A stretch of 39,843 bases of DNA from Chiloscyllium plagiosum (GCF_004010195.1 NC_057755.1:7674776-7714618); one strand, 5' to 3'. Positions 522-30,459 are shown, counted from the first letter of the stretch. A program made the numbers and translations. Notes: generated by a model from the letters alone, not told the origin.

Positions 522-638
522 TCAATTATTGAATTCCTTATCTAACCAGAAGCTGGTGAGACTGATGATCCAGCCAGAGAGGACCAGTTGCAAGACATCA
601 AAGAAAGTTATTATCCAATGATAACTGGACATGCAAGT
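522..638 (-). CDS. Terminal coding exon (TM4 plus short C-tail) of MS4A/CD20-like gene
   Basis: Strong acceptor tttctgttctcttacAG (AG at 639-640). Phase-0 frame TCMSSYHWIITFFDVLQLVLSGWIISLTSFWLDKEFNN* with TGA at 522-524. The hydrophobic segment VLQLVLS aligns with the MS4A TM4 motif VLEFCIA. Confidence 0.7.
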   Translation of the reverse strand, partial: TCMSSYHWIITFFDVLQLVLSGWIISLTSFWLDKEFNN

Positions 639-784
639 CTGTAAGAGAACAGAAACATTGCCATGAATGGTCTGACTGTTGTCTAATTACCCATCCCTAA
701 TTAACCAGAGGGCAGGTAAGAATCAACCACATTACAGGGGGGAGGGCTGGAGTTATGTAAGTCAGGCCAAGTCAGAATGAATCG

Positions 785-1290
785 ATGTGGCGGTGGAAAA
801 AAAACACACGTCAGGCAGCATCTGAGGAGCAAGAGAGTCAATGTTCGGGCATAACCCTTCTTCAGGACTGGGGAGGGAGCAGGGGGCTCAGAAATAAGTA
901 GGGGTAGAGGGAGTGGGGCTCGGGGAAAAGTAGGTGGGATCGGCGAAGGTAGATGATTGTGATAGGTTGGTGGAGCGGCTAGCTGGGAGGGTAGATGGAC
1001 AGGTAGGTCAGGTCTGGAGGGTGGACCTTGGTCAGAGGCTTGGCACGAAGGGGAAATGTGCAAACTGGTGAATTCAACGTCGAAGCCATGTGGTTGTAGC
1101 CTCCCGAGGCGGAAGATGAGATGTTCCTCCATTAGTTTGTGGGTGGCCTTGAGTAGGCAGTGGAGGCCCAGACTGGACATATCATCAAGGGAGTGGAAGG
1201 GGGCGTTGAACTGGATGGCTACAGGAAGGTGAGGTTGGTTAGTGCCTACAGACCAGAGATATTCCCTGAACCTTTCCGCCCGTTCCGCAA
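785..1290 (-). mobile_element. Penelope-like retroelement 3' fragment (GIY-YIG endonuclease C-terminus plus pseudo-LTR)
   Basis: ORF 701..1303 contains HLPVAIQFN...LMEEHLIFRLGRLQPHGFDVEF, the typical end of the Penelope EN domain. It is followed by a degraded hammerhead motif CCTGAAGAAGGGTTATGCCCGAA at about 842-866. Confidence 0.8.
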
Positions 1291-1292
1291 AG

Positions 1293-1465
1293 GAAAACAG
1301 CAAATACCGCAGAAACCCAGCAGGTCTGGCAGCATCTGCAGAGAGAGAAACAGAGTTAACGTTCTGAAAAAAGGGTTATAGGACTCAACGCTATTTTCTC
1401 TCCCCACAGATGCGGTCAGACCTGCTGAGTTTCTCTGGCAGTTTTTGTTTGTTTGCTTCAGATCT
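1293..1465. mobile_element. Short inverted (palindromic) Penelope pseudo-LTR cassette, older subfamily
   Basis: Left arm CAGCAGGTCTGGCAGCATCTGCAGAGAGAG; right arm CTCTCCCCACAGATGCGGTCAGACCTGCTG, its imperfect reverse complement. Same family as 35145-35280 and 39018-39115. Confidence 0.6.
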
Positions 1466-1796
1466 CTCGTTCTTGATTTTGTTCCAGGTAAAGCCAACGG
1501 TTTCTGACATGAGTGAAGTAATTTTTGTCCTGACAATCAACAATTCTCTGAGGCTGTAGAAGCTGTTTTTGCTGGATTGCCCATTTGCAGCCATTTTTTT
1601 AGTCAGTCATAGTGCTGCTTTCTCCTTGGCTTGGCCCCTTTGCTCGGGTGGCCTTAGCTACGAGAAATTCTGCCTTTTCCACATAACTCATGAGCAATTT
1701 ACCTGTAGGTACTTGCTAATCAGGGTGTGAATATTGTGTGCTTTGATTCAAGGTCTGAGAACACTAATGTGCAGTCTTGGCAAGTCCTTAACCCAG

Positions 1797-2038
1797 TAAA
1801 AACAAGGACTGCAGGTGCTGGAAACCAGAGTCTGGATCAGAGTGGTGCTGGAGAAGCACAGCAGGTCAGGCAGCATCCGAGGAGCAGAAAAATCGACGTT
1901 TCGGGCAAAAGCCCTTCATCAGGAATACAATGGCACCCTGCATGTATTCCTGATGAAGGGCTCTTGCCCGAAACATCCATTTTCCTGCTCCTCAGATGCT
2001 GCCTGACCTGCTGTGCTTTTCCAGCACCACTCTTAACT
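1797..2038. mobile_element. Palindromic Penelope-derived cassette with hammerhead ribozyme motifs on both strands
   Basis: The arms are reverse complements around about 1935. The flanking AAGTCCT(T/C)AACCC is duplicated (about 1782-1794 and 2039-2051). Confidence 0.8.
1891..1927 (-). ncRNA. Minimal type I hammerhead ribozyme motif (Penelope-type), core intact
   Basis: Minus strand reads UAUUC-CUGAUGA-AGGGC-UUUU-GCCC-GAAA-CGUC-GAUU: CUGANGA and GAAA cores, 4-bp stem II, palindromic ACGU stem III and a GUC cleavage triplet. Confidence 0.75.
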
Positions 2039-2547
2039 AAGTCCTCAACCCTGCCCAGTGTATGTTCATATAGGCCATCTCATGACTATTTTGTGGTTCT
2101 GTGTCTGATTGAGCAATTCTTAGCTCGGACTACATAAATCCACAATGATCTGGAGTGCTTTGGAGTTGCACCAGTCCGTTCTAAGGAAAGGTGCAGTCCC
2201 CATGATACCACGCAATGAAGTTTGTCAGTTCTCAAGGTCTGAGTCTGGGGAATTTCTTCACCAATCTGGCTCAATCAGGCAGAAGTCATTAATTATGGGA
2301 TCCTGAACAAACTTAAAGTAGTTAAAAAAAACCAGCTAACCTGAGTCGACAGGCTGATCCCAAGTTAGGGAAAGACGCGGAGACAGGATGGGTCTGAAAA
2401 GAACACTGCCATAGGACAGAAGCCATTTTAAGTGGACCTTGAGGGATTAACAATGACACCAGTGTTTGTGTTGCTTGGCTTTGTGTGTTTTGTTTGGTCA
2501 TTTCATCACAGATAGTAGAAACGTGCTTTGGAACTGAGGAAGCGACG

Positions 2548-2900
2548 ATTGGGTCAACGACCACTAAATGTAAGAAAGACTGGCCGGCCCCAGGGACAAG
2601 GAAACCATGTCCCACTGAGAAGCACGGCCCATGTCCATCTGTCCCCTCGAAAAAGACGCAGAAGCGCCAGAGGTAAATAGGTTCGATGCAAAAATAAGGT
2701 AGGAGACACTCTGGTTCCCAGTCGGAAATAACTTTAAGGAAGTTCTCAGCTGGGCTATGAAGACAGAAAATAACCAAATGCTTTTTAAGGAACTAGCAGC
2801 AGGTGTTACAGTGAACACACAGAGACAGGAAGTCTGTCCAAAACAGCTAAAGGAGCGAGTGTGCGAGAAGGGCGGGCACTTTACCAAGAAATGCCTCAAT
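2548..2900 (+). pseudogene. gag: ERV gag matrix remnant
   Basis: GSTTTKCKKDWPAPG resembles a myristoylated MG start with the ATG decayed. A frameshifted WFPVGNNF resembles the gamma-type MA W/FPxxGSF motif. It lies just downstream of the LTR and leader. Confidence 0.45.
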
Positions 2901-3164
2901 AAAAAAACAATAAGAATTATGACAAACTAGGACATAGAAAAGTTGTCCTGACATGGAGGCAGGCAGGAACAAGGATTTGAACTGGCACAGAGTATCGTCA
3001 GCCAGTTGTCAATGGCAACCACAGCGAGCAAATTATAATCCAATTTACAGCAGATAAATTTAAGGAAGCTGTGAAAGGCAGCAGATCAATTTAAAGAAGT
3101 TGCCAACGGCCATCAGCCCCCAAAAAATAAATATAGCGGTCAGCCGCCCGATGAGCAGAACTTA

Positions 3165-3970
3165 TTAGCTATTCGTCATTTTTATAAACGACCTGGATGA
3201 GGGCGTAGAAGGGTGGGTTAGTAAATTTGCAGACAACACTAAGGTCGGTAGAGTTGTGAATAGTGACGAAGCATGTTGTAGGCTATAGAGAGACATAGAT
3301 AAGCTGCAGAGCTGGGCTGAGAGGTGGCAAATGGAGTTTAATGCGGACAAGTGTGAGGTGTTTTACTTTCGTCGGAGTAACTGGAATGCAAAGTACTGGG
3401 CTAATGGTAAGATTCTTGGTAATGTAGATGAGCAGAGAGATCTCGGTGTCCATGTACACAGATACTTGAAAGTTGCCACCCAGGTTGACAGGGTTGTTAA
3501 GAAGCTGAAAATGTGTTGCTGGAAAAGCGCAGCAGGTCAGGCAGCATCCAAGGAGCAGGAGAATCGACATTTCAGGCATGAGCCCTTCTTCCTGCTCCTT
3601 GGATGCTGCCTGACCTGCTGCGCTTTTCCAGCAACAAATTTTCAGCTCTGATCTCCAGCATCTGTAGTCCTCACTTTCTCCTAGGGTTGTTAAGAAGGCA
3701 TACAGTATTTTAGCTTTTATTAATAGAGGGATTGAGTTCTGGAACCATGAGGTTATGCTACAGCTGTACAAAACTCTGGTGCGGCCGCACTTGGAGTATT
3801 GTGTACAGTTCTGGTCACCGCATTATAAGAAGGATGTGGAAGCTTTGGAAAGGGTGCAGAGGAGATTTACTAGGGTTCTGTCTGGTATGGAGGGAAGGTC
3901 TTATGCGGAAAGGCTGAGGGACTTGAAGCTGTTTTCGTTAGGGAGAAGAAGGTTGAGAGGTGACTTAATC
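3165..3970 (+). mobile_element. CR1 LINE ORF2 (RT C-terminal) fragment inserted in the ERV
   Basis: FINDLDEG..SKFAD.TK, MEFNADKCEV, LYKTLVRPHLEYCVQFWSPHYKKDVEALERVQRRFTR. Confidence 0.9.
3505..3682. mobile_element. Palindromic Penelope cassette inserted in CR1
   Basis: Inverted arms with a perfect 15-bp target duplication AGGGTTGTTAAGAAG at 3490-3504 and 3683-3697. Confidence 0.85.
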
Positions 3971-4289
3971 TTGCAAACAGTTTTGAACATAACAAAGCGT
4001 TAATTAAAGAGAGGACCCAAACCAGTCAGAATAGCGAGGGGAGTGAATCAGAACAGAAAGCTTGGTGGTCGAGCCAGAAAAAGAACAAGGCACAGAAAGG
4101 GTTAATTATCCTAGCAGCTCTTTTGAAACAAAACGCCTCACAGAGGGAAAAAAGTAAGATGGTTGCAGTGGCAGCTAAAAGAGCATACTCCGAAAGGAGT
4201 TATGTTTTCATCTTAGCTATCTGCACCACGACTAGCTTCTCTGCTACTCCACTTGTTTTTCTGTTATCGACCTTTGCTCAGCCTTTTTC

Positions 4290-4620
4290 ATAGAATCCCT
4301 ATAGTGTGGAAACAGGCCCTTCAGCCCAACAAGTCCACACTGACCCTCCGAAGAGTAAATCCCCCCAGACCTATTCCTCTCTCCTATCCTTACCCCTGAC
4401 TAATGCACCTAACCTACACATCCCTGAACACTATGGGCAAGCTAGGATGGCCAGTTCATCCTAACCTGCACATCTTTGGACAGTGGGAGGAAACTGGAGT
4501 AAACCCACGCAGACACAGGGAGAAGGTGCAAACTCCACACAGACAGTTGTCCGAGGCAGGAATTGAACCCAGGTCCCTGATGCTGTGAGGCAGCAGTGCT
4601 AACCACTGAGCCATCACGCT
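4290..4620 (-). mobile_element. HE1-type V-SINE
   Basis: Minus strand has the tRNA-like head GTGGTTAGCACTGCTGCCTCACAGC, the V-domain TGTGTGGAGTTTGCAC..CTCCC.GTGTCTGCGTGGGTTT and the CR1-like tail GGGCTGAAGGGCCTGTTTCCACACT. Confidence 0.9.
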
Positions 4621-5009
4621 GTCCCATTTTCTCTGTTAAATTGTCACCGGTCAGCCAATACCTTTTCACTTTCACTTACGACGGCCGCCAATATACATGG
4701 ACACGGCCCCCCCCAAGCATACATGGAGAGCCCCACTGTATATGCCTCTGCTGTACACCGGACCCTGAAAGACCTCCACCAGTCATGTAAAAGCACCTTG
4801 GCTCAGCATGCCAATGATTTATTAGTGGTCTCCCATTCACCTCATGCCTCTACATATGACACTGTTGGATTGCTCCACTCTCTGGCTCAGGATTGACATA
4901 AGGACTCTATTGAAAAGATGCATCTCTGCCAAAAGACAGTACAGTATTTGGATACGAACTTTCACACCGTCTCAGAGCACTGTCTCAGGATCACATCTCT
5001 CCTCCCACT

Positions 5010-5497
5010 CATAGGAAGGACGTGGAAGGTTTTGGACAGGGTTCAGAGGAGGTTTACTAGGATGTTCCTGGTACCGAAGGGAAGGTCTTCTGAAGAAAAG
5101 TTGAAGAACTTGAGGCTCTTTTCATTAGAGGGAGAGGTGACTTAATTGAGACATACTAGATAATCGGAGGGTTAGCTAGGATGGACAGTGAGAGCCTTTT
5201 TCCTTGGATGGTGATGGTTAGTATGAGGGGACATAGCTTTCATTTGGGGGGGGCAGCGATAGATATAGGACAGATGTCAGAGGTAACTTCTTTACTCAGA
5301 GAGTAGAAGGGGGGTGGAATGCACTGCCTGCAACAGTAGTAGACTTGCCAGCTTTAAGGGCATTTAAATGGTCATTGGATAAACAGATGGATGAAAGTGG
5401 AATTGTGGAGGATAGATGGACTTCAATTTGGTTCCACAGATCGGCGCAACATTGAGGGCCGAAGGGCCTGTACTGTGCTGTAACAGTCTATGTTCTA
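5010..5497 (+). mobile_element. CR1 LINE 3' end
   Basis: LDRVQRRFTRM, 3' UTR GGGCCGAAGGGCCTGTACTGTGCTG and a (TTCTATG)n tail. Confidence 0.9.
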
Positions 5498-6118
5498 TGT
5501 TACAGCAATTGAACTTTTGTCCTTTTTGGGCATGGTGAATTACTGCAGACATTGGATACCAGACTATCAAGTTATTGATGTGCCTCTCCGCCAGGCATCC
5601 TCGCCAAACCTACCAGTCCCGGTGAACTGGATACCTGCAATGGCACAAGCCATGAAGAAACTTAAACAGTGCTTAACCTCAGCACCTGCTCTGGGCATCC
5701 CTGACCTTTTCAGCTTTATGCTGACGAAAAGGAGGGATATGCGTCCGGCATTCTACCACAACTGCATGGGCACCCTGTCGCCTTTTTTTAAAAAAGATTA
5801 ACAGAAGGACAGAATCAGTCGCCTCTCCTCTTTTAACACAAGAAAAGAGCAGAGTCCTTCACTTCCACACTGATCCAGCTCCCTCACGAACCAGTTCTCA
5901 GAGTGAACCATCTCGCCTTTTATTCTGTATCATTCCCACCTGTCGTAAAGGGAATGCTGACCTGTTTAGGAGCTGTGGCGGCTGCCGCTGTCATGGGAGA
6001 AAAGTCCACCCATCTTCCATTCCCCTTGTACAGTTTTCATTCCTCTTTTGGTTTCCCTGCTGCTTAATTCAGCAGCAACTCAGCATTTCACAGCGTCAAG
6101 GAGAACTGGCTGTGAGGT

Positions 6119-6417
6119 CTAGATTAGATTACTTACAGTGTGGAAACAGGCCCTTCGGCCCAACAAGTCCACACTGACCCTCCGAAGAGCAACCAATCCA
6201 GACTCATTCCCCTACATTTACCCCTTAAGCTAACACTACGGGCAATTTAGCATGGACAATTCACCTAACCTGCACATTTTTGGACTGTGGGAGGAAACCC
6301 ATGCAGACACGGGGAGAATGTGCAAACTCTACACAGACAGTTGCCTGAGGCAGGAATTGAACCAGGGTCTCAGGCGCTGTGAGGCAGCAGTGCTAACCAC
6401 TGTGCCACCGTGCCACC
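6119..6417 (-). mobile_element. HE1-type V-SINE
   Basis: Full head-to-tail match on the minus strand with a (TAATC)n tail. Confidence 0.9.
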
Positions 6418-6559
6418 CACAAGTAGGTCATCCTACTTTCTCGCAGTGACCTTACACTTCAGTGTGCCCTGGCTTGAAACGCTGTCTCCCTTCTCCCTGT
6501 TATACAGGATTCCCTGGCAGATGACCATGATTGCCTACACGGAGTCCAGGAGGTTGTCA

Positions 6560-7060
6560 CCCTGTGCCCCGACCTCTCTGAGACCCCATTAGACAACCCA
6601 GACATGGTCCTTTCTCACAGACGGCTCCTCTTTTCGGCCCTCAGATCATCAAACGCGAGCTGGCTCCATGAAATGTGCACCTTTTGAAACCCTTGAATCC
6701 GCTGCGCTGACGGAAGGGACGGCTGCGCAAGTAGCCAAACTGTTTGCCCTTACCAGAGCCTGGTGAAAGGTCTGTCAACATTTGCACAGACTCCAGATAT
6801 GCCTTTGGAGTGGCACATGATTTTGGAACCTTGTGGAAACGTAGAGGATTTATTACCTCCTCTGGAAGGCCCTTGCAGCATGCCCTGCTCATTAACGATT
6901 ACCCTTTTACAGGCTATGATGCTGCCCTCCGCCTTAGCTGCGGTAAAGTGTGCCCCCCCCATACCGCTGCTGACAGCCTCATCGCCCGAGGGAATGCTCG
7001 CATTGACCAAGCTGCTAGACAAGCAGCATTAGCTCCCACTGTATGGATTCTACAGGCTCC
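6560..7060 (+). pseudogene. pol: ERV RNase H remnant
   Basis: TDGSS at about 6617, then NICTDSRYAFGVAHDFGTLWKRRGFITSSG, VKC..H and ARGNARIDQAARQAA. Confidence 0.9.
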
Positions 7061-7149
7061 AAAGGCAGGGGAAGCAATAAGGGTTTTCGATCCAGCAGAG
7101 GGAACACAGGCTGCACAGCAACAGGCTCCACAATCGAGAAAGAGAGTTG

Positions 7150-8400
7150 GGTGCACATAGCTCTTTAGGGCTAACGGTGCATCCTGAAGGAAGGTTCATT
7201 TACCCCAAAGCCTACTTATATGTTCTTGCACTGGCTGCGCATGGGGTCAGTCATGCAGGAAAAGAAGGGATGATACATGCAGTACGACAAACTTGCTACA
7301 CACCAGGCTTTGCAGCATCAGCACAAGCACTAGTATCAAAATGTCAACAAAATAATTTTTTTTTAGATTCCCTACATTCCGGAAACAGGCCCTTCGGCCC
7401 AACAAGTCCACACCGACCCTCCGAAGAGCATTCCCATACATTTACCCCTGACTAATCCACCTAACACTACAGGCGATTTAGCACGGCCAATTCACCTGAG
7501 CTGCACATCTTTGTGACAGTGGAAGGAAACCAGAGCAAACCCACGCAGAGAACATGCAAACTCCACACAGAAAGTTGCCCGAGGACAGGAATTGAACCCG
7601 GGTCCCTGGCGCTGTGAGGCAGCAGTGCTAACCACTGAGCCACCGTGCCACCATGCGAAACTTTTCGCCATGTATGATCACCTGCCCGTCCCAGATGGAC
7701 CCTTTCATCATTTACAGACTGATTTAGGTCACGCACCAACTAAACAGGGCTTTAAGTACACGCTGGTAATTTTCTAAATGGGTAGAAGCCTTTTCCGCAA
7801 GACGATGCTAGGACTCTGGTCAAATGCCTCGTGAAGGATGGGATCCCTAGGTTTGGAATTCCAGAGAGCGTTAACAGTGCCAGAGGCACGCACTTTGCAG
7901 CAGCAGTCACAGACAATGTTACTAAAGCACTCGGCATCGTGCGGAAATATCATATTCCCGATCAGCCCCAGTCCTCAGGTATGGTGGAATGGTACTCTTA
8001 AAACCACCCTGACAAAGACCTTCCAGGATACCGGCCTGTCTTGGTCAGATGTCCCACCCCTAGCCCTTAAGAAACCAGGGCCACGGAAGCACAGGACTTA
8101 CCCCATTTGAGCTCCTGATGGGAAGACCCAGGCACACGGGAGCAAGACCTCCTAAATTTCCTGTGGATACGGCATTACTCTTAGACAGGAAGCTCTTCTG
8201 GATTATGTCAAAGCGCTCTGTAAGATGATTATCCGTAACCACGATCCGGTAAAAGAGGCCATTTGCGCACCTAATGATGACCCAATGCACCCCTTCTGAC
8301 CTGAGGACTATATCGCGATGAAATGATTGGAAAAGAATGCTGTCTCACTCCCAGGTGGAAAGGCCCGTACCTCGTCCTCCTGGTAACCCAAGGTTGAGGG
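7150..8400 (+). pseudogene. pol: ERV integrase remnant
   Basis: HGVSHAGKEGM (HHCC region), PVPDGPFHHLQTD, FKYTLVI, KWVEAF, IPRFGIPESVNS, PQSSGMVE, TGLTPFELLMGRP and PRWKGPYLVLLVT, across frameshifts. Confidence 0.9.
7363..7654 (-). mobile_element. HE1-type V-SINE inserted in integrase
   Basis: Same HE1 head, V-domain and tail on the minus strand. Confidence 0.9.
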
Positions 8401-8413
8401 AAGGCCTGAGCGG

Positions 8414-9410: not shown

Positions 9411-9426
9411 GTTAAAATCAACTAAG

Positions 9427-10591: not shown

Positions 10592-10594
10592 AAA

Positions 10595-10870: not shown

Positions 10871-10879
10871 AAGCCAACG

Positions 10880-12924: not shown

Positions 12925-13227
12925 TAAACTGGCTCAAAAGTAATGGGTGACTGAAGTGAATGGTTGCTTTTCAGACTGGAGGCCTGTGACCAGTGAAGTG
13001 CCACAAGGATCGATGCTGGGTCCACTACTTTTCATCATTTATTCAGATGATTTGGATGTGAGCATAAGAGGTATAGTTAGTGAGTTTGCAGATGACACCA
13101 AAATTGGAGGTGTAGTGGACAGCGAAGAGGGTTACCTCAGATTACAACAGGATCTGGACCAGATGGGCCAATGGGCTGAGAAGTGGCAGATGGAGTTTAA
13201 TTCAGATAAATGCGAGGTGCTGCATTT
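12925..13227 (+). mobile_element. CR1 LINE RT fragment running into the gap
   Basis: SDWRPVTSEVPQGSMLGPLLFIIY.DDLD..FADDTKIGG..MEFNSDKCEVLH. Confidence 0.9.
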
Positions 13228-13920
13228 NNNNNNNNNNNNNNNNNNNNNNNNNNNNNNNNNNNNNNNNNNNNNNNNNNNNNNNNNNNNNNNNNNNNNNNNN
13301 NNNNNNNNNNNNNNNNNNNNNNNNNNNNNNNNNNNNNNNNNNNNNNNNNNNNNNNNNNNNNNNNNNNNNNNNNNNNNNNNNNNNNNNNNNNNNNNNNNNN
13401 NNNNNNNNNNNNNNNNNNNNNNNNNNNNNNNNNNNNNNNNNNNNNNNNNNNNNNNNNNNNNNNNNNNNNNNNNNNNNNNNNNNNNNNNNNNNNNNNNNNN
13501 NNNNNNNNNNNNNNNNNNNNNNNNNNNNNNNNNNNNNNNNNNNNNNNNNNNNNNNNNNNNNNNNNNNNNNNNNNNNNNNNNNNNNNNNNNNNNNNNNNNN
13601 NNNNNNNNNNNNNNNNNNNNNNNNNNNNNNNNNNNNNNNNNNNNNNNNNNNNNNNNNNNNNNNNNNNNNNNNNNNNNNNNNNNNNNNNNNNNNNNNNNNN
13701 NNNNNNNNNNNNNNNNNNNNNNNNNNNNNNNNNNNNNNNNNNNNNNNNNNNNNNNNNNNNNNNNNNNNNNNNNNNNNNNNNNNNNNNNNNNNNNNNNNNN
13801 NNNNNNNNNNNNNNNNNNNNNNNNNNNNNNNNNNNNNNNNNNNNNNNNNNNNNNNNNNNNNNNNNNNNNNNNNNNNNNNNNNNNNNNNNNNNNNNNNNNN
13901 NNNNNNNNNNNNNNNNNNNN
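13228..13920. other. Assembly gap
   Basis: Run of N. Confidence 1.
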
Positions 13921-14221
13921 ACATGCCTGGTGCGGACTTGTCCTACCCGCCTATCCCCTTTTCCACCTATCCACCCCACCCTGGCCTATCACCTTCATCC
14001 CCTCCCCCACTCACCCATTGTACTCTATGCTACTTTCTCCCCACCCCCACCCTCATCTAGCTTATCTCTCCACGTCCAGGCTCACTGCCTTTATTCCTGA
14101 TGAAAGGCTTTTGCCCGAAATGTCGATTTCGAAGTTCCTGGATGCTGCCTGAACTGCTGTGCTCTTCCAGCACCACTAATCCAGAATCTGGTTTCCAGCA
14201 TCTGCAGTCATTGTTTTTACC
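13921..14221 (+). mobile_element. Penelope pseudo-LTR with hammerhead motif
   Basis: Pyrimidine-rich segment, then ATTCCTGATGAAAGGCTTTTGCCCGAAATGTCGA (about 14093-14126) and the family end CCAGCATCTGCAGTCATTGTTTTTAC. Confidence 0.8.
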
Positions 14222-14845: not shown

Positions 14846-14846
14846 T

Positions 14847-16945: not shown

Positions 16946-17595
16946 ACTTCACAATGCACCACTGCAGCCACCTGCAGTGAAGAATATCACAGATTCACTG
17001 CCTTCTCAGTAATGATAATCATCTTGATCCCTGCCTTAAATGGACACCTCTAAATTCAGGGATAATGCAAACTGGTTCCAGGCTCTCTGACGGGGAGAAG
17101 AAATGTCTCAGCATCGAGTGATGCAGCATAGAAACAGATTGATGTCTCGACGCAGTGTCTACTAATAATGCAGATAGGAAACTGCATGTCAATGAGGGGA
17201 GATTTGGTGTCAACAATGCTGCTATCAGGCAAGAGTCACGGTTAACAGGCAACTCATCACTGCCCAGCAAGAATCTCAGCTCAATGCCTCCAGCTTCGAT
17301 GGAAGATACGGCTCATGACTCCAGACCTTGAGGTATTTCACTTCGACCTCCCAGGTTATTTCCCACAGTCCACATCAGTCAGGCCTTTATCATATGCCAG
17401 CTTTAGGGAGAGGGAAGACCGGGGACAATTATAGGGTGATCAGACCCATTATCAGATTTGGAAAAGTACCAAGATTGTGAAGCTGTAAGGCAAGACGCGG
17501 TCACAGAAATAGGAAAAGAGGCGTTTAAGGACGTGGTTAAGAGTTTTGCATTCAAGCTTTTTTTGATATTCAAGCATAAAAGTAAATAAATATAT

Positions 17596-18068: not shown

Positions 18069-18170
18069 CGCATTGCTTTCATCCTGTTTAGTTCCATTCC
18101 AGACTGATAATCCCATTGACGTTATCGCAGTCAGCAAACCTATGATGTTCATGCCAAGTACAGTACGTAA
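18069..18170 (-). CDS. MS4A-like exon: TM3 plus second extracellular loop
   Basis: Acceptor ttttttccAG (18171-18172) and donor GCG/GTGAGA (18067-18068). 102 bp, phase 0-0: LRTVLGMNIIGLLTAITSMGLSVWNGTKQDESNA. Matches the MS4A exon that begins VRGSLGMNI. Confidence 0.8.
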
Positions 18171-19598: not shown

Positions 19599-19655
19599 CT
19601 TAAACTTTTCGCTTGTCCTGAGGGGTAACAAAGGAATCATTCCTATAACACAAAA
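19599..19655 (-). CDS. MS4A-like exon: TM2 second half plus intracellular loop (57 bp)
   Basis: Acceptor tttcctcttttctgttgcAG and donor AAG/GTATTG. Exactly 57 bp, phase 0-0: FCVIGMIPLLPLRTSEKFK. Size and position correspond to the short MS4A FIISGSL exon. Confidence 0.75.
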
Positions 19656-22609: not shown

Positions 22610-22723
22610 CAGAACACCAGACCACCATGGAATGCGGACTTGTGCAAATGGGCTGTGCGGTGTTAAAATCGCCGAAGCAGTTGCCAAAACACTGATTGTG
22701 AAGCCCAAAGAGATTTGGCTCAA
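22610..22723 (-). CDS. MS4A-like exon: TM1, first loop and start of TM2
   Basis: Acceptor ttactcttcacAG and donor CTG/GTAAGA. 114 bp, phase 0-0: LSQISLGFTISVLATASAILTPHSPFAQVRIPWWSGVL. Contains the MS4A hallmarks xxQIxxG and PxWxG. Confidence 0.85.
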
Positions 22724-23262: not shown

Positions 23263-24333
23263 TGTGACCATACTGTGGCTTTAAGACATGCTAGAATATT
23301 TTTTTTTGAAGAGAGGTTTTAAGGCAGAGGTGGTGAGCTGTCTACCACGGTCACTAGGGTGAACAGTTTGTGAGGCCTTGGATTTTTTTAAAACGTTGGA
23401 ACCATAAAAGTAGCCTGAAGGGGTGTTGGCAAACTCCCACTGAGCCATGACTTTCAGGTTTAGCTTTCAGCATTTGCTGTTGGGTCTTGATGAAGTGGAA
23501 GCTATTTTTATTCCGCTGTCTCTGTTATAGTCAAAAGCTGGGCTGTTCTCTTATTGCTACTGGAGTTGCATGTGAGACCATCTGTTTTCTGAATTTGCCT
23601 TTTTTGCCAAGAGTAAGTTTGTGGGATGTTACTATATTGGAACAGTTAATTAGTAATAGTTACCACATCTATTATTCTGTTATGACATCACCAACCCAAA
23701 GAAACCCAAACATTTAAATGGAAAGCAGGAATTTTCAGCAGTGCTTCACCTGAGACCCACTGAAGCAGTTACCTAGTAGGACGACGAAATGTCTGGAAAT
23801 GAACAGATTACAGATTACATTACAGTGTGGAAACAAGTCCACACCGCCCCGCCGAAGCGCAACCCACCCATACCTCTACATTTACACCTTACCTAACACT
23901 ACGGGCAATTTAGCATGGCCAATTCACCTGACCTGCACATCTTTGGACTGTGGGAGGAAACCGGAGCACCCGGAGGAAACCCACGCAGACACGGGGAGAA
24001 CGTGCAAACTCCACACAGTCAGTCGCCTGAGGTGGGAATTGAACCCGGGTCTCAGGCGCTGTGAGGCAACAGTGCTAACCACTGGGGCACCGTGAACCTT
24101 CCAGTTCAGCGAGCAAACCAAATTCATTCTGTTAAATTTTTATAATTCCTTCTTTATTTTGTTTAGTTTAACTATAGCAGATGAATAAAGTATGTTTTGC
24201 TTAATGTCAAGTGGCTTAACTAATCGAATTGCATCTGGAGTGCAACACCTTACATTTACCTTTAAAATAAGAAAAGGTTAAGGTCCAGACTTTCTTCTGA
24301 AAATTTTGAGGGGGTTTGATCTGGTCCATAACA
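23263..24333. mobile_element. Solo LTR-like element with nested Penelope fragment (about 23682-24125) and HE1 SINE (23805-24093, -)
   Basis: TGTGACC...CCATAACA ends with a near TSD GATTG/AATTG. The Penelope piece is flanked by ATTCTGTTA and the SINE by TGAAC. Confidence 0.6.
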
Positions 24334-24566
24334 AATTGATAACATTATTAAAGGAATGGAGTTTTCCTTCTGTAATTGATTAGTGATGTTCAGAATCGGA
24401 AATCTAAATTGGACACAATTACAGGATTTGAAGTGGATCTTTTCAGGACATGGTCATGAAATTCAACAATTGCGCATGTACGACGAGCCAGTGCAATTTA
24501 AGGTGGGTTAAGGCAAGTCATCATTGAAGTATGGATTTATAAGGAATGAAAAGTTGAAGCTGCAAC

Positions 24567-24795
24567 ATGGTTTCCTCCAGGCATTCTGGTTTCCTCCCAC
24601 AGTGCAAAGATGTGCAAGTTAGATGGCTTGGCCATGTTAAATTACCCATAGTGTCCAGTGATCTGCAGGCTAGGTGGGTTAGCCATGGGAAATGTGGGGT
24701 TACAGGTTTAGGGTGGGGGTGGGATGTTCTTCAGAAGGTCAACGTGGACTCAATGGATCGAATGGTCTGATTCCACACTGTAGGGACTCTACAAT
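24567..24795 (+). mobile_element. Older HE1-like SINE, 5'-truncated
   Basis: GGTTTCCTCCCACAGTGCAAAGATGTGCAAGTTAG ... TTCCACACTGTAGGGA. Confidence 0.75.
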
Positions 24796-25556
24796 TCCAA
24801 GCTTCTATGAGGTTGTCTGTCATTTGTAGATGAAGGGACATTGAAATGTTGAATGTGTTGTCAATGTCTGTAATTAACAAAGTCCACAGAGGATTGATTA
24901 CATTTAGTTAGGGATGGATACTGACATATGCAAAGAATTGAGAATGTCAATCCAGAAGTGAGAGAGTGAGGGGGATGGTTTGCTCAGGTGGCTGGAACAA
25001 TGCAAAGAGATGTCAACAGCATGGGTTCAACTTCCACATGGGCCAAGGTTCTCAAAAGGACTCTCCTCCCGAGAGGCATGTTCACCCTTAAGCTAAACTA
25101 TCACCTCATGAGAGAGAAGTCCTCTGCTACAATAGCACAATGGCAATTTTAGCTTAATTGCAAAAATGAGCATTGAAGCAACAAATTTATAATATTTACA
25201 TGGACACGACACAAATGTAAAATGGTTGAGGCCTTTATATGCCCTTCTGCTCTGAAATCTAAGACTGTTTAATAATATCCAGACTGGAATGGACACTGGA
25301 ACACAATTGCATTTGTACTGGATTGGATAAACTATGGAACACATAGTACGCTGATAATCTTTATTAAGTTTTTTAAAATTTATTCACAGGGTGTGAGTAG
25401 TATTGGCCAGGACAGCATTTGTTGTCTATGCCTAATTGCCAAGAAGGCAGTGGAGAGTTAACCACATTGCTGGAATCACCCTGTGGGGCAGACCAGGTTA
25501 TGGATGGCTGTTTCCTTCCCTACTGGACAATAGAGGGCCAAATGGGTTTCCCAACA

Positions 25557-25830
25557 ATGTTCCACAGGGATCGGTTCTGGGTCCTCTTTTGTTTGTCATT
25601 TGTATACACAATTTGGATAAGAATATCAAAAACATGGTTAGTAAGTTTGCAGAAGGCACCAAATGAGTGGCATCGTAGATAGTGAAGAAGGTTTCCTAAG
25701 ATTACAAAGGGATCTTGCTCAAATGGGTCAATGGGCTGGAAAAATGGCAGATGGAGTTCCATCTGGATAAGTGGATATTTCAGTTTGATACAGCAAACAA
25801 GGGTTGGGCTTATACTATTAATGGTAGGGA
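25557..25830 (+). mobile_element. CR1 RT fragment
   Basis: VPQGSVLGPLLFVICIHNLD..VSKFAEGTK. Confidence 0.85.
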
Positions 25831-25899
25831 CAAACATTGTCAATAAATTCTCATTGAGCACCAATCGGGTCTTATTGCATCGTCTTTTGGAATACTCAC

Positions 25900-25952
25900 A
25901 GAAGGGTATCGTAGCTTTCCATCACGACCATAGTCTTTGGCTTCCCCTTTAA
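25900..25952 (-). CDS. Candidate pre-TM1 exon of the MS4A-like gene (53 bp, phase 1-0)
   Basis: Acceptor atttctttcAG and donor TCT/GTGAGT. Reads (x)KGEAKDYGRDGKLRYPS and splices in frame to 22723. KGEAK..G resembles the MS4A juxtamembrane KGEPKVLG. Confidence 0.55.
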
Positions 25953-26469
25953 CTGAAAGAAATCAATGTATGGAAAACATTTCATCTTCAGGAAATCAAA
26001 ATAGGTTTCTGATATTCTATCAGCAATGATCCTTGCATATTTATTCAAAGTCTTTGCAATATTCAAAGCTTAGGTTATTGATATACATCATTTGATCTTG
26101 ATTTAAATCCCTATCTCGAGCCCAGATGAGACAAGAGATTGCTTCGAGTCATGCAACATAGAGAGAGACCCTTCGGCCCACCAAACACCAAACATTTACC
26201 TGGAACTTGGTCGATAGCCTACTGTATGCTGACACTTTAAGATTCTTCAGAAATGTTGTAAGAGTTTCTGCCTCCCCAGCCTCTCAGCAAGCACATTCCC
26301 CCGTATTTCTACCATCCTCTGGGTGAAAAGATTCTGCCCTCAGATCCCAGTTACGCCTCACCTTAAACTTATACCCTCTTAGGTATCTCTGCCATGGGGA
26401 TGAAATTCCCATGATCCACTCTGTCTGTGCTGGTTTAGATTCTATGTCAGGGCCTGACTTTAGATGTAG

Positions 26470-26563
26470 GGCTGAAAATGTGTTGCTGGAAAAGCGCAGC
26501 AGGTCAGGCAGCATCCAGGGAACAGGAGAATCGACGTTTCGGGCATAAGCCCTTCTTCAGGAA
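26470..26563 (-). mobile_element. Short Penelope cassette with an intact minimal hammerhead motif
   Basis: Minus strand reads UUC-CUGAAGA-AGGGC-UUAU-GCCC-GAAA-CGUC-GAUUC (about 26528-26563). Flanked by an AGATGTAGGG duplication. Confidence 0.8.
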
Positions 26564-26787
26564 GATGTAGGGCCCTTCCTCAAAATCCTCACAGACAGCA
26601 TTTCCATTGAAGTCACTCCGCATTTGCTTACACAGAACAGGACGTAAACATGGGTCGAAGGAGACAAAGCCTCAGTGAGAAGTGACCGAGTGAATGGAAG
26701 TGTGTAACTTAGCTGTGTAAGCAGCTTGAGAGAGTAACAGGTCCACTAGGTGAGCGGTCAGGGTGGTAGCATGTACAGGAGGTCGTG

Positions 26788-27185
26788 TAGTCATAGAGAT
26801 GTACAGAACAACTCGCCCATGTTGAGCAGATATCCTAAATTAATCGAGTCCTATTTGCCAGCATTTGGCCCATATCCCTCTGAATCCTTCCTAGTCATTT
26901 ACGCATGCAGATGGATTTTTAATGCTGTCATTGTACCAACCCCCACCACTTCCTCACCCACTGTGTGAAAAAGCTCCCACTCAAGTCCTTTTTAAATCAT
27001 TACGCATGCAGATGGATTTTTAATGCTGTCATTGTACCAACCCCACCACTTCCTCTGGCAGCTCATTCCATACACGCTCCACCCACTGTGTGAAAAAGCT
27101 CCCACTCAAGTCCTTTTTAAATCATTTTCCTCTCACCTCAAACCTATGCCCTCTAGTTTCGGACTTCCCCATTCCGGGGGAAAGA
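26788..27185 (-). mobile_element. CR1 3' fragment with internal tandem duplication
   Basis: CR1 tail motifs. TCATTTACGCATGCAGATGG...CCACTTCCTC and CCCACTGTGTGAAAAAG...TTTTAAATCAT each occur twice. Confidence 0.8.
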
Positions 27186-27279
27186 TCTCGGTTATACATG
27201 CTACCCCATATTGCTCATGCGGGAAAGGAACGGGCAGGAAGACTGGGTTTGGACTGTCACTCAAGAGTGCTTGGCTTAC

Positions 27280-27386
27280 TTTTATACTCTAACTTTTCCT
27301 GGGTTACTCTCCACGTAATTGTTTCTGAATCCTCCGAAGCTCCCCGACTCCAGCCTTTGATTTAATGGTTTCTATTGCAGAGTAAT
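27280..27386 (-). other. Candidate linker exon (107 bp; frame broken unless one G is added in the G-run at 27342-27345)
   Basis: Acceptor attgacAG and donor AA/GTAAGC. Phase-1 entry gives NYSAIETIKSKAGVG, and the shifted frame ASEDSETITWRVTQEKLEYK exits in phase 1. Confidence 0.3.
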
Positions 27387-27601
27387 CTGTCAATCATAAG
27401 GTTCAACTCTCAGGTCATCTCCATATCGTTAGTGCATTGCAACCCCAATGGGGCTAAACCTCCCTCATTTCCTGACGCGATCGCTTTTCCAATCAGCTGG
27501 GTGTTTATCTGAGTTTTGAAAAGTATGGCCAATGCATCTTTTAGCTCACCGGACACTTCCCATTCACCTTGAGATGGTGACCAGAATATTTAAATACTCA
27601 C

Positions 27602-27787
27602 TTGAGGTCCAGATGTTTGCTTTTATTTTTCTCTTATTGATTGGCTGCTTTAACTCTGAATCTTGGACATCTTCGAACGATAGTTGATCTTGATGACTCA
27701 AGCAGAGCACTGATTGTTTCCTGTATCCATCAAGTTCATCAAGGCCCTGCACAGATAGGGATACCACTGAATCTCTGCGACAGTATT
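27602..27787 (-). CDS. Candidate linker exon (186 bp, phase 1-1)
   Basis: Strong donor A/GTGAGT but weak NAGNAG acceptor. Open frame EYCRRDSVVSLSVQGLDELDGYRKQSVLCLSHQDQLSFEDVQDSELKQPINKRKIKANIWTS. Splices in frame to the 53-bp exon. Confidence 0.45.
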
Positions 27788-28901
27788 CTGCTTGGAAATC
27801 CACCACGTGAACTATACAGCAACTGCAGGGGGAGGATTATATTACACATTCTCCAGAACAATGAAAGATGGGAAAAAAATTGAATTCCTCCTCCACACCC
27901 CTCACAACTCCAAAACAGGCAAAGGGTTCTGAAAGGCAAATCTTCTGGAAGGAAGAAAAGACAATCCAAACAGATTTCATACGGCATGTCTGACTAATAG
28001 AGTTCAATGTTTGAGGAGATAAATGGAGAGTTGATGAAGGAAATGCATTTGGTGTGGATGTTCGAAAGGTTATTGATAAGATCCCACTGTCTTGGAAAGT
28101 AAAACCTTACAAGCCAAGGGAGAAGAGCAAATTGGATTGAAAGTTCTCTCAACTCTACGCAGCCACCCACATACTTGACCTACCTCCCGATGTCACCAGC
28201 ACTAGCTCAAACCTCCACACACCCGTTGGCCCATTCACCAATGTTAGAACCGAACCTATGACAGGCATGTCCATCAAGAAACATGACTGGTTTTCCCCGT
28301 GTTGTGCTCTACTCTTTTGGAGGTCTCCAATGGACGCTGTCCTGCATATTTATCACAAAGTGGAGTTCATAAACATGGAAGTGTTTGGAACTGGTGGAAA
28401 ATCAAAGTGAATTGAACAGAATGACAGTCAACTCTGTCATGACAGGTTAAATTTGAAAAGGGCTTGATGGAGGAGACAGAGGGAGGTTGTTGCCTCGAGT
28501 TTTCAAACGGTTGGTTTGAAATGGAGGAGCCTTTTAGAACATCTACATCAAATGCACTGCCTTCATCAACTCTCCATTTAAACTCCTCAAACATTCTAAC
28601 CCTCTTTGTCAGACAAGATATGCATTGAATCATTTACAAAAACGGTGAGGAAATATTTCTTCATTGAGCAGCTTTGCATTTCCTCTGTCAGATTGTTGTG
28701 ATGCTATTTAATGTTCAACAGAACTAGCATCTGTCAGGAAATTATTATCCATGTCAAGTTGTCAAAGAACCTCAGTCAGGATCATGATAGAACTGGTTAA
28801 AGGAGGAGTATGATCTGATCCTACTCATATCTGTTATGTGCTTTGCATTTTTTTTTATTCTGGTAGGACACATTTTATTGTTAAATGTGAACCAGATTCA
28901 C

Positions 28902-28928
28902 CGAATTGGTTTCTGTCATTATTCTGTC
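28902..28928 (-). other. Candidate 27-bp micro-exon
   Basis: Acceptor tatttcctgttattAGcAG and donor TCG/GTGAAT. Open in phase 0 (DRIMTETNS) and phase 1 (GQNNDRNQF). Confidence 0.3.
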
Positions 28929-29479
28929 CTGCTAATAACAGGAAATAATTGAGTGAGACCTGTTTCCTGTAGACAGCTTATCTGCTTGAATCCCATGAAA
29001 TCTCAAGTAGACTGACTGTATAGAAATTGCTTCCAATTAGTAAGGCACACAGGCGAAGGGATACAAGGTCATAAGACCATAAGGCCACTTGGCCCATTGA
29101 GTCAACTCTGCCATTTGATCATGGCTGGTATGTTTCTCAATCCCACTCTCCTGCCTTCTCCCCGTCACCTTACTAAGCATGAACCTATCGATCTTTGCCT
29201 CAAAGCCACTCAATGACTTGACCTCCACAGCCTTCTGCGGCGATGATTTCTATGGATTTACCACCCTCCAACTGTAGAAATCTCTCGGAAACATTCCTCA
29301 ACTATGTGAGACCGAAATTCAGAAGACCTTTCTCGCCGAGCAGATTGAATGATCACCTCCAGCAACTTCTTATATTTTAAGAGACAACTCGAACGTGTGA
29401 AGAGAACATGAAAGAAGTGGAAAACCCGAAAAAGGTTAAGTTGACACCATCCATACAACAAGAAACCGGAGGTCACCAG

Positions 29480-29811
29480 GAATAGAATCCCTACAGTGTG
29501 GGAACAGTCCCTTTGGCCCATCAAGCCCACACTATTCCTCCGGAGAGCATTCCCCCCTCCAAACCCAGCCCACCTATCCTGCATTTCCCAGTGGCTAATC
29601 TACCTAGGCTACACATCCCTGGACACTATCGCCAGTTTAGAATGACCAATCCACCTAGCCTGTGCATCTTTGGACTATGGGAGGAAAACGGAGTGCCTGG
29701 GGGAAACACAGACTTGCGGAGTGTGTGCAAAATCCACACAGAAAGTCGCTCGAGGCTGGAATTGAACCCATGTCCATGGTGCTGTGAGGCAGCAGTGTTA
29801 ACCACTGAGCC
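29480..29811 (-). mobile_element. HE1-type V-SINE (older)
   Basis: Head, V-domain and tail on the minus strand. Confidence 0.85.
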
Positions 29812-29964
29812 TTCTATAATCTGCCATGTGAACTTAGCACATTAGCGACCTGTTATTCCCCAGGGTCTACAATTCCAAAGCAAACGCTTGGCTCAAAATA
29901 CTCAAATCTTCCGGCTGCAAGAAAAGCACCAATTGAGTTTTGGAAAAAGGAAAATCGAAATTAC

Positions 29965-30201
29965 CTCTCCCCCTATCAGCTTGTCCACCAGATCCATTCG
30001 TGGAATGTTTCCCAGAATAGTCACAACCACCTTTGATGCTTTCTCCTTGTCCTTGTAGAATTTCTTCAGCAGCTCCGCCACCTTGAAAGCGTCGGCATTT
30101 TCTAGTTTGCCAGCTGGTACCCGGTGCTCTCCCAATAAGTGCCTGAAGCGTTTCATCTCCTCTTCTGTCAAATCCTCTAGAATTAGATGAATTTTGTCCA
30201 T
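29965..30201 (-). CDS. Pyrin domain (PYD, death-fold) exon; probable first coding exon
   Basis: MDKIHLILEDLTEEEMKRFRHLLGEHRVPAGKLENADAFKVAELLKKFYKDKEKASKVVVTILGNIPRMDLVDKLIGGE fits the PYD pattern LE.L...E.K.F..L...IP.G.LE.AD...LA.LL...Y....A..V...IL..I.R.DL...L. Acceptor tttctttcAG 6 nt before a good Kozak gtcATGg; donor GAG/GTAATT (phase 0). Confidence 0.9.
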
Positions 30202-30459
30202 GACCTCCTGAAAGAAATATGGAGATGTGCTGCATTTGTCATACGATATCGTGGTGTAGAACTTTCAAAGAGGATAAAAAGTGACACCGATTTTTGGCAA
30301 CGCAATATTAATGCTCGATTCAATGAGACTGTGTCGAATTTCCCATCACCCAGTGCACAGATCTCAGTAGCTCCATGTCCCATCATTTATAAATGTTATC
30401 AATCTCAGTTTTGAACACTCCAAAAAGGTGACACTTAATAACAGAAGAGCAAGAGTAGG

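Follow-up and report, generated by a model that had tools for sequence, protein, structure and literature searches.

Pyrin domains (PYDs) are otherwise known from soluble inflammasome proteins, and to our knowledge NLRP3, NLRP6, NLRP12, AIM2, ASC, and POP1 are all soluble. Two membrane proteins offer points of comparison for the gene described here: MAVS, a tail-anchored CARD adaptor, and FcεRIβ, a tetraspan that bears an ITAM. In addition, two mammalian CD20-like tetraspans, TMEM176B and (together with VSIG4) MS4A6D, are reported to restrain inflammasome activity in trans (PMC6521897 and PMC6326752, respectively). In the shark gene, by comparison, a PYD is joined to a CD20-like four-pass membrane protein.

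The gene, LOC122544135 of the whitespotted bamboo shark Chiloscyllium plagiosum, carries the RefSeq name 'uncharacterized protein' and occupies the minus strand of the window, that is, of the whole stretch of 39,843 nucleotides that was analysed. Its seven coding exons extend over 522-30201 and join into a CDS of 825 nt encoding 274 residues and a stop, identical in every letter to RefSeq XP_043539110.1 (P0005); the exon borders, read directly from the sequence, all have AG at the acceptor and GT at the donor. The PYD exon (29965..30207) contains the start codon (ATG 30199-30201) and encodes residues 1-79, with a product 100% identical to these residues of P0005 (tblastn) and a phase 0 donor GT after 29965. 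The exon begins at 30207 because an acceptor (cag followed by GAGGTCATG) precedes the ATG; since this acceptor occupies 30208-30209, there must be a 5' UTR exon further upstream. Linker exon 1 (27602..27746, 145 nt), found by tblastn and bordered by splice sites (cag before GGCCTT, gtgagt after CAA), is entered in phase 0 and left in phase 1, encoding residues 80-127 and the first base of codon 128. Linker exon 2 (25900..25952, 53 nt), which encodes residues 128-145 including the motif KDYGRDGKLRYPS, is entered in phase 1 and left in phase 0, so that the two exons restore the frame only as a pair. The tetraspan exons follow: the TM1 exon (22610..22723, residues 146-183) with motifs QI..G and PWW.G, the TM2 exon (19599..19655, 57 nt, residues 184-202), the TM3 exon (18069..18170, residues 203-236) with the motif LGMNI and the start of an outer loop bearing NGT and NAT sequons, and the TM4 exon (522..638), which encodes residues 237-274 and ends with the stop codon at 522-524. 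The 3' UTR continues towards the start of the window, and neither AATAAA nor ATTAAA occurs in the 521 nt 3' of the stop.

An earlier note on this DNA had listed the coding part of the PYD exon (29965-30201) and the four tetraspan exons and had interpreted them as a fusion. The observation is confirmed, since all five translations match exactly and are bordered by AG and GT, and the fusion interpretation is indirectly supported. The two linker exons had been missed, and with them the annotated main product has 274 residues rather than the 208 of direct PYD-to-TM1 splicing. When segments of the window matched in length were joined at random in sets of seven as a chance control, none of 20000 joins was open in frame.

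A paralogue with all seven exons lies 6.3 Mb away in the same genome (C46:1.357-1.379 Mb). Its exon lengths are 237/148/53/114/57/102/117 nt, compared with 237/145/53/114/57/102/117 nt in LOC122544135, and its linker exons of 148 and 53 nt keep the same phases. The paralogue also holds an intact optional exon that gives isoforms with three transmembrane segments. The degenerate counterpart of this exon at 17263..17439 (minus strand; 41% identity in tblastn of P0009 residues 225-287) contains three in-frame stops and is probably not coding in LOC122544135. Between the paralogues, exons are 85% identical, versus 74-79% for the four aligned introns, and in a neutral simulation 5.4% of copies remain stop-free at 7.5% change per site. 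The dN/dS ratio is 0.77 overall (PYD 0.67, linker 0.78, tetraspan 0.83), and values this high point either to weak constraint or to diversifying selection.

Gene models, all of them predictions, place both domains together in six shark species, which answers the earlier suggestion that other chondrichthyans be searched; the orders, known for four of the six, are Orectolobiformes, Heterodontiformes, and Lamniformes. In C. punctatum, the 306-residue orthologue GCC17372.1, from an independent GenBank annotation on another assembly, follows the same exon chain. The agreement of the RefSeq model, this orthologue, the paralogue, and the models of the six species indirectly supports the proposal that the PYD and tetraspan exons share one gene. 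It may be argued that prediction pipelines have wrongly chained two genes, a PYD-only gene and a tetraspan gene arranged head to tail. One of the older models from C. punctatum, GCC33237.1 (P0016, 91 aa), does consist of the PYD exon only, read through its donor, and the cyprinid fusion models discussed below could be read-through artefacts. We nevertheless regard a wrong join as highly improbable. No Met occurs between residue 69 and TM2, in line with the earlier remark that the tetraspan part has no convincing start exon of its own, and the linker exons, themselves without a start codon, require an upstream phase 0 donor. The seven-exon unit has been duplicated whole, its chain is in frame in six species (three orders among the four looked up), and a second pipeline working on another assembly arrived at the identical chain. 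Thus, judged from gene models and sequence, a single gene very probably encodes the PYD-tetraspan fusion.

The identification of the PYD, which comprises residues 1-77 of the 274-residue protein, is upheld by the exon alone, which scores 57.5 bits against Pfam PYRIN (PF02758; E 1.6e-15). The whole protein scores 53.7 bits, more than the 22.9 bits of the curated cut-off, and its shark relatives score 35.8-57.6 bits. Assignment as a DED instead was rejected, with DED profile scores of 19.8-31.1 bits, all below the cut-off of 35.9 bits. The predicted structure has five helices within residues 2-76 (pLDDT ~80) and superimposes over 77 residues on the PYDs of NLRP12 (Z 14.1, rmsd 1.3 Å), NLRP3 (Z 14.0, 1.3 Å), and ASC (Z 13.4, 1.5 Å), with rmsd values for these three proteins in the range 1.2-1.9 Å. 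Among PYDs in the PDB, the family profile matches those of NLRP6 (8e-8), NLRP3, AIM2, and ASC. As judged by sequence and model, the domain is nearest to the receptor-type, filament-forming PYDs of NLRP6, NLRP3, and NLRP12 rather than to the PYD-only proteins (POPs), although the PYDs of POP1/ASC2 are also found among the fold and sequence matches.

The presence of POP1/ASC2 among these matches lends some weight to the possibility that the fusion is a membrane-bound decoy, inhibiting in the manner of a POP by sequestering PYD sensors or adaptors at the membrane. The two-domain architecture fits this reading equally well. No effector domain lies in the gene span either: among 134 ORFs scanned, out of 136 on the minus strand of 1-30400 with at least 50 aa, the PYD ORF is the sole one to match a relevant family, in agreement with the earlier statement that no CARD, NACHT, caspase, or PRY-SPRY exon follows the PYD. 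Furthermore, relatives have optional exons that yield PYD-less and three-transmembrane isoforms, a sign that dosage may be controlled, and TMEM176B and MS4A6D with VSIG4 are reported precedents for inflammasome restraint. Inhibition and activation are not separated by the present observations, however, and with a PYD nearer to those of NLRP6, NLRP3, and NLRP12 than to POPs, we consider a decoy rather unlikely.

Candidate partners of the PYD are few. The genome contains at least four PYD exons, two of them belonging to the fusion genes; the third precedes a death-domain ORF by 3 kb, and the fourth lies 9.4 kb upstream of a HIN-200 match, the only one in the genome. None of these PYD exons, whose number is a lower bound, lies close to one of the 32 CARD matches, where the PYD of an ASC-like PYD-CARD pair would be expected, and no PYD ORF was found within 10 kb upstream of the CARD at the 16 of 32 loci scanned with a PYD HMM built here (positive controls 4/4). 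A classical ASC route downstream of the fusion is unsupported at the 16 of 32 CARD loci covered. The scarcity of PYD partners would also suit a reversed relationship, in which the tetraspan is a CD20-like channel or scaffold and the PYD serves it as a regulatory or ligand-binding head, for example for a lipid or for a glycolipid of microbial origin. Both halves of this idea have precedents: the PYD of zebrafish caspy2 is cited as an LPS binding site (PMC12292325), and ion channel activity has been described for TMEM176B (PMC4806298). Against it, the fold and profile matches of the shark domain are ordinary homotypic PYDs, and a PYD in the service of the tetraspan seems highly improbable.

The PYD is connected to the tetraspan by a linker of ~65 residues that is predicted to be disordered, with pLDDT below 50 for residues 78-132. 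The part encoded by linker exon 1 evolves fast, with 19-25% identity between shark orders, compared with 50-67% for linker exon 2. In the juxtamembrane motif encoded by the latter, Lys133, Tyr135, Gly136, Gly139, Lys140, Leu141, and Arg142 are invariant in eight shark sequences.

The tetraspan, spanning approximately residues 142-272, is a four-helix membrane domain whose relationship to MS4A proteins is looser than had been stated. The whole protein scores 27.7 bits against Pfam CD20 (PF04103; E 3.3e-6), which falls short of the curated 27.9-bit cut-off by 0.2 bits, so that the Pfam scan of the spliced product proposed earlier clearly recovers PYRIN and narrowly misses CD20. Six of 12 shark relatives exceed this cut-off (28.1-38.7 bits) and six fall below it (18.7-27.7 bits). 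The CD20 signal is present in the whole protein only, as none of the three longer tetraspan exons matches in a single-exon Pfam scan and the 19-residue exon is too short to be scanned. In hhalign, eight shark sequences align with 22 canonical MS4A proteins from bony fishes, lungfish, and amphibians over 75 columns covering TM1-TM3 (probability 93.3%, E 2.8e-7), with the QI..G, P.W.G, and LGMNI motifs in register. No ordinary MS4A protein was found at E <= 0.001 by phmmer among 1.84 billion representatives, and none of five weak genome matches to CD20-like exons lies on C46, the contig that carries the gene, a count that is a crude lower bound. In the fold comparison (VIA-align), Z is 12.4 for CD20 and 14.3 for FcεRIβ, and the two sarcospan matches, at 16.8 and 16.5, are the only ones clearly above the background, because four-helix bundles outside the family score up to Z 13.5. 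The Foldseek results are also headed by FcεRIβ, sarcospan, and CD20, with every E above 1e-3. These three account for eight of nine PDB sequence matches of the PYD-less isoform P0012. Their E-values in PDB sequence comparisons differ little (FcεRIβ 0.0013-0.015, sarcospan 0.0045-0.014, CD20 0.012-0.11). By sequence and model, the domain is thus a divergent member of the CD20-like family, about as near to sarcospan as to MS4A2 or CD20.

The helices of the structure model comprise residues 142-165, 178-192, 199-229, and 233-272; the model, built from a 10-sequence alignment, has a mean pLDDT of 68 and thus moderate quality. Four hydrophobic segments are present, with five Lys/Arg residues before TM1 and four in the TM2-TM3 loop, versus one in each of the other two loops, and both sequons are placed in the TM3-TM4 loop. 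Both termini, and hence the PYD, are predicted to lie on the cytosolic side. The outer loops have only about 10 and 17 residues and therefore offer no evident sensing surface, which counts against the explanation that we favour below.

The same architecture is found in two cyprinid gene models, XP_051746592.1 of grass carp ('MS4A4A-like') and XP_067283960.1 of Pseudorasbora parva ('MS4A8-like'), in which a PYD precedes a CD20 domain (PYRIN 61.5 and 74.2 bits, CD20 66.4 and 59.6 bits, respectively). Their PYD shares 69% identity with that of a cyprinid 'caspase b-like' protein and their tetraspan 47% with an MS4A4A-like protein of grass carp, whereas they match the shark protein at only 21-26% of positions overall and at 0-11% in the linker. 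In a tree of 17 PYD sequences, the fusion PYDs of cyprinids and those of sharks form separate clades (support 99/97 and 91/90). Composed as they are of cyprinid parts, these models point to convergence, and they are likely to represent either an independent origin or read-through. LOC122544135 is a real gene, and its fusion architecture, which the earlier note did not recognise from described proteins, is indeed undescribed in the literature searched, although public gene models, including the two cyprinid ones, already hold it.

Taken together, the best explanation, and on balance a probable one, is a fusion membrane protein that acts through clustered PYDs, a function that we infer. Like CD20, FcεRIβ, or sarcospan, the tetraspan half would self-associate and form part of a larger membrane complex, and would not itself be a ligand receptor, and it would tether the PYD to the membrane by means of the flexible linker. 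Clustering of the complex would then raise the local concentration of PYDs and may seed homotypic assembly, which could recruit the PYD-HIN candidate, the PYD-death-domain candidate, or the paralogue. We can suggest, more tentatively, that the fusion serves as an activating PYD platform.

The shark PYD shares the helical death fold of the receptor and adaptor PYDs (NLRP3, NLRP6, NLRP12, AIM2, ASC, and POP1), with 27-36% identity, but differs from them in its covalent attachment to an integral membrane domain and in lacking a NACHT, CARD, HIN, caspase, or B30.2 exon. With the CD20-like tetraspans (MS4A2/FcεRIβ, MS4A1/CD20, and sarcospan) the shark protein shares a four-helix bundle and the predicted cytosolic location of both termini, although the outer loops of CD20 are far longer. 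As in FcεRIβ, a cytosolic signalling module would be carried on a tetraspan, this module being an N-terminal death-fold PYD instead of an ITAM or short tail. The nearest functional analogy would, in our inference, be a death-fold adaptor anchored in the membrane, as MAVS is, and not the classical ASC inflammasome. In both proteins a death-fold domain is held on the membrane by a flexible linker, and clustering makes, or in the shark protein might make, a polymerisation seed. The two have no sequence relationship, MAVS combining a CARD with a single C-terminal anchor, whereas the shark protein carries an N-terminal PYD on a four-pass membrane protein.

The seven exons of LOC122544135, located on the minus strand of the window, join by their coordinates to 825 nt that reproduce all 274 residues of the predicted product, XP_043539110.1 (P0005), letter for letter and end with a stop codon; when window segments of matched lengths were joined at random 20000 times, no join remained open. 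The protein was retrieved with the exon encoding the pyrin domain (PYD) as a query, with 100% identity across that exon, under the name 'uncharacterized protein LOC122544135 [Chiloscyllium plagiosum]'. The earlier note, working from sequence alone, had proposed a single fusion gene at 522–30207 and named five of its exons. These translate exactly as written there, each with AG at its acceptor and GT at its donor, but the list lacked two linker exons, which were found by tblastn of P0005 on the same strand, at 27602–27746 (145 nt, phase 0 to 1) and 25900–25952 (53 nt, phase 1 to 0). The exon carrying the start codon (ATG 30199–30201, minus strand) is directly preceded by an acceptor, and thus a 5′ UTR exon must exist further upstream; a pattern based on the start of a Chiloscyllium punctatum isoform gave no matches for such an exon. 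At the other end, neither AATAAA nor ATTAAA is present in the 521 nt between the stop codon and the window edge (window 1–521, minus strand), so that the transcript probably ends outside the window or relies on a different signal. The DNA of the window, which occupies C46:7674776–7714618 in the assembly, is that of a vertebrate, rich in repeats, and includes a run of N. At about 12944–14152 this assembly gap breaks an ORF that by eye resembles a reverse transcriptase, and the long introns, among them the 17.4-kb last one, are filled with many further ORFs resembling retroelements.

The N-terminal 79 residues of P0005 constitute the PYD. Against Pfam PYRIN, whose cut-off is 22.9 bits, the exon alone scores 57.5 bits and the full-length protein 53.7 bits. 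Assignment of this domain as a DED was rejected, since the DED profile scores below its own cut-off. A profile of the shark family, compared with solved structures, matched the PYDs of NLRP6, NLRP3, AIM2, NLRP4, POP1, and ASC, the best at 8e-8.

The structure of the locus and the comparison of gene predictions make it very probable that one gene encodes the whole PYD–tetraspan fusion. No methionine follows Met69 in P0005 before the second transmembrane segment (TM2), and the tetraspan part is without its own start codon in the annotated exons. The two linker exons restore the reading frame only as a pair, and they need an upstream phase-0 donor, which the PYD exon supplies. A paralogue, LOC122544060, located 6.3 Mb away on the same contig (C46:1356911–1378722, minus strand; L023–L025), also has seven exons in the same order and with canonical splice sites, their lengths being 237/148/53/114/57/102/117 nt in the paralogue versus 237/145/53/114/57/102/117 nt in the window gene, which indicates that the whole unit was duplicated. 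Two-domain gene models are found in six shark species, with two loci each in C. plagiosum, C. punctatum, and Hemiscyllium ocellatum, as well as in Stegostoma tigrinum, Heterodontus francisci, and Carcharodon carcharias. The architecture thus recurs in gene models of five further sharks, a recurrence that the earlier note had suggested looking for in chondrichthyan genomes, and the four species looked up span the orders Orectolobiformes, Heterodontiformes, and Lamniformes. The PYD–linker–four-TM chain is also present in GCC17372.1 (GenBank, 306 aa), a C. punctatum model that another annotation produced on another assembly. On the minus strand of positions 1–30400 there are 136 ORFs of at least 50 aa, and among the 134 scanned against Pfam the PYD ORF was the only one to match a relevant family. 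The possibility that the gene span hides an exon for a CARD, NACHT, caspase, or SPRY domain was consequently rejected, and HIN and death-domain exons were likewise absent from these ORFs, in agreement with the earlier note, which had seen no CARD, NACHT, caspase, or PRY-SPRY exon after the PYD. Counting against one gene, all of the chains cited are predictions, and an older partial model from C. punctatum (P0016) consists of the PYD exon alone.

Several isoforms and optional exons accompany these models. A second frame of the PYD exon is open as well (a 123-aa ORF at 29870–30238, minus strand). In isoform X3 of C. punctatum (P0012), translation starts upstream in this second frame and the 145-nt linker exon is left out, by which the tetraspan frame is regained and a PYD-less tetraspan is encoded. 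Such exon skipping may be a switch between PYD-bearing and PYD-less forms. In the paralogue, an optional exon that follows TM3 shifts the frame, and the TM4 exon then encodes a short tail ending in ...PVIIG, yielding isoforms with three TM segments; an isoform from Heterodontus has the same ending. The window contains a degenerate copy of this optional exon, with stops, at 17263–17439, and no intact one.

Comparison of the two paralogues gives a nucleotide identity of 85% and a dN/dS of 0.77 over all exons, the corresponding values being 86% and 0.67 for the PYD, 81% and 0.78 for the linker, and 87% and 0.83 for the tetraspan, and the four aligned introns, for which dN/dS is not applicable, are 74–79% identical. 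These ratios point to weak or partly diversifying selection, with the exons still not in free drift; selection of this type is common among immune genes. Among simulated neutral copies subject to substitutions alone, 5.4% were stop-free at 7.5% change per site. A decaying pseudogene was rejected on the grounds that the ORF is intact, the exons are more conserved than the introns, and the orthologues are intact as well. Across orders, the shark proteins are 39–54% identical to the window protein in the PYD and 51–64% in the tetraspan. Linker exon 2 is 50–67% identical at this distance, and seven positions of its KDYGRDGKLR motif do not vary among eight sequences; linker exon 1 is 19–38% identical, in line with a disordered tether.

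Judged by its sequence, the tetraspan half belongs to the CD20-like family, as a divergent member. The match of P0005 to Pfam CD20 has an E-value of 3.3e-6 and 27.7 bits, 0.2 bits below the curated cut-off, which is passed by six of the 12 shark relatives scanned, the other six falling short; three tetraspan exons scanned singly gave no Pfam matches. Independently of Pfam, a shark-only profile aligned with a profile of 22 canonical MS4A proteins over TM1–TM3 with 93.3% probability (E 2.8e-7), the QI..G, P.W.G, and LGMNI motifs being in register with those of MS4A. The divergence is real, because phmmer retrieved no ordinary MS4A proteins at E ≤ 0.001 among 1.84 billion representatives. The closest clusters in the ESM Atlas are CD20/MS4A (score 0.76), a match that serves as a lead only. 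Since FcεRIβ, sarcospan, and CD20 are about equally distant by sequence, the domain is filed here as CD20-like; of the 'MS4A' label originally attached to it, membership in the wider family was retained, but not a place in MS4A proper.

An AlphaFold model of P0005, based on a 10-sequence alignment and with a mean pLDDT of 68, consists of a helical PYD (pLDDT ~80), a disordered region comprising residues 78–132 (pLDDT < 50), and four long helices within residues 142–272. Foldseek placed FcεRIβ, sarcospan, and CD20 first and PYDs next, with weak E-values and no row at E ≤ 0.001. Re-examination of Foldseek's own list with VIA-align gave, for the PYD, Z-scores of 14.1 with NLRP12 and 14.0 with NLRP3 (rmsd 1.3 Å for both), and for the tetraspan 16.8 and 16.5 with sarcospan, 14.3 with FcεRIβ, and 12.4 with CD20, on a scale on which unrelated helical bundles reach ~13.5. 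Both termini are predicted to be cytosolic, so that the PYD would face the cytosol. The prediction draws on hydropathy, on the Lys and Arg counts (5 and 4 in the parts predicted to lie inside, compared with 1 and 1 in those outside), and on the TM3–4 loop, which bears two N-x-T sequons.

An exhaustive search and a profile search also yielded two models from cyprinids that score strongly for both PYRIN and CD20, XP_051746592.1 from grass carp (P0028), named 'MS4A4A-like', and XP_067283960.1 from Pseudorasbora parva (P0040), named 'MS4A8-like'. According to precomputed annotation, nine of 107 profile matches carry both families (seven shark and two cyprinid) and 95 carry CD20 alone. The PYD of the grass carp fusion is 69% identical to that of a cyprinid 'caspase b-like' protein, its tetraspan is a canonical MS4A domain that shares 47% identity with a grass carp MS4A of neighbouring type, and its linker has 0–11% identity to the shark linker. 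Additionally, the shark and cyprinid fusion PYDs form separate clades in a 17-row tree. Orthology was rejected for these reasons, the parts of the carp protein being local ones, and the cyprinid fusions read as either convergence through domain shuffling or read-through models.

When the 3.56-Gb genome of C. plagiosum was searched with Pfam PYRIN, at least four matches were obtained, two of which are the two fusion genes. Another, on the plus strand at C43:11929304–11929516 (L001; 59.9 bits), has a death-domain ORF (PF00531, E 7.8e-9; L017:3379–3687) 3 kb downstream, and its PYD is 34% identical to the PYD of a snake protein named 'FADD-like'; this locus is a candidate PYD–death-domain adaptor. 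The remaining one, on the plus strand at C11:82467674–82467883 (L004/L020; 41.9 bits), is followed 9.4 kb downstream by a HIN-200 ORF on the same strand (C11:82477281–82477604, L021:92–613; Pfam HIN 55.3 bits, E 8.9e-15), the sole HIN match in the genome. In a phmmer comparison of this ORF with Ifi204, AIM2, and IFI16, E-values of 8e-11 for Ifi204 and 6e-9 for the HIN domain of AIM2 were obtained. The exon pair is a candidate for a shark AIM2-like PYHIN gene; a 2026 paper calls the PYHIN family a placental-mammal-specific innovation (PMC13253634). None of the 32 CARD matches in the genome is near a PYD exon, and a PYD HMM run over the 10 kb upstream of 16 of these 32 loci found no PYD, with all four positive controls recovered. 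Within these 16 loci and a PYD count that is a lower bound, an ASC-like adaptor was not detected.

To our knowledge, the PYDs described to date are modules of soluble proteins, namely NLRPs, AIM2-like receptors, ASC, pyrin, and fish caspases. In searches of the main text of papers, no description of a fusion between a PYD and an MS4A or CD20-like protein was found, nor any mention of six LOC identifiers of the fusion genes. The impression that the architecture was unfamiliar holds insofar as no paper was found, although public models already display it as 'uncharacterized protein' or 'MS4A-like'. What is new is the combination of two known domains, and that combination is real and conserved. 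Where and how PYD polymerisation is nucleated is a central inflammasome question, and an integral-membrane PYD, in frame across three shark orders, would exemplify membrane-nucleated PYD signalling or membrane-bound sequestration. The fusion also joins in cis what mammalian work joins in trans only, namely inflammasomes and CD20-like tetraspans such as TMEM176B and MS4A6D. It provides an entry point to cartilaginous-fish innate signalling in a genome where PYD exons are scarce and ASC is not evident, and a protein as short as 274 aa is easily tested in heterologous cells.

A single reading frame, conserved in sharks, runs from the PYD through a flexible tether into a four-pass domain of the CD20-like family. 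As the outer loops comprise only ~10 and ~17 residues, the tetraspan is more likely to be a complex subunit or scaffold than a receptor, and it might take part in a membrane complex in the manner of FcεRIβ, CD20, and sarcospan. Clustering would then concentrate the tethered PYDs and could trigger their homotypic assembly with a partner from the small set of PYD proteins in the genome. That the fusion protein acts as an activator of PYD signalling is the favoured but tentative reading, possible but somewhat short of probable, and the data presented here are silent on whether it is an activator or a decoy. The latter, its mirror image and the main rival, would hold PYD proteins at the membrane by sequestering them, and we regard it as rather unlikely. 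We can also speculate that galeomorph sharks possess a small ASC-free PYD network in which the fusion protein and its paralogue provide a platform for the single AIM2-like PYD–HIN sensor and a PYD–death-domain adaptor, a long shot at best. If true, cytosolic DNA sensing would be wired to the membrane through PYD–PYD contacts, and early jawed vertebrates would have had membrane-anchored PYD signalling, with the soluble ASC speck being one solution among several. MAVS is a membrane-anchored death-fold adaptor, and an adaptor of this type would be the nearest functional analogue of the fusion protein; the ASC-free network, in turn, might be likened to RIG-I wired to MAVS through CARDs.
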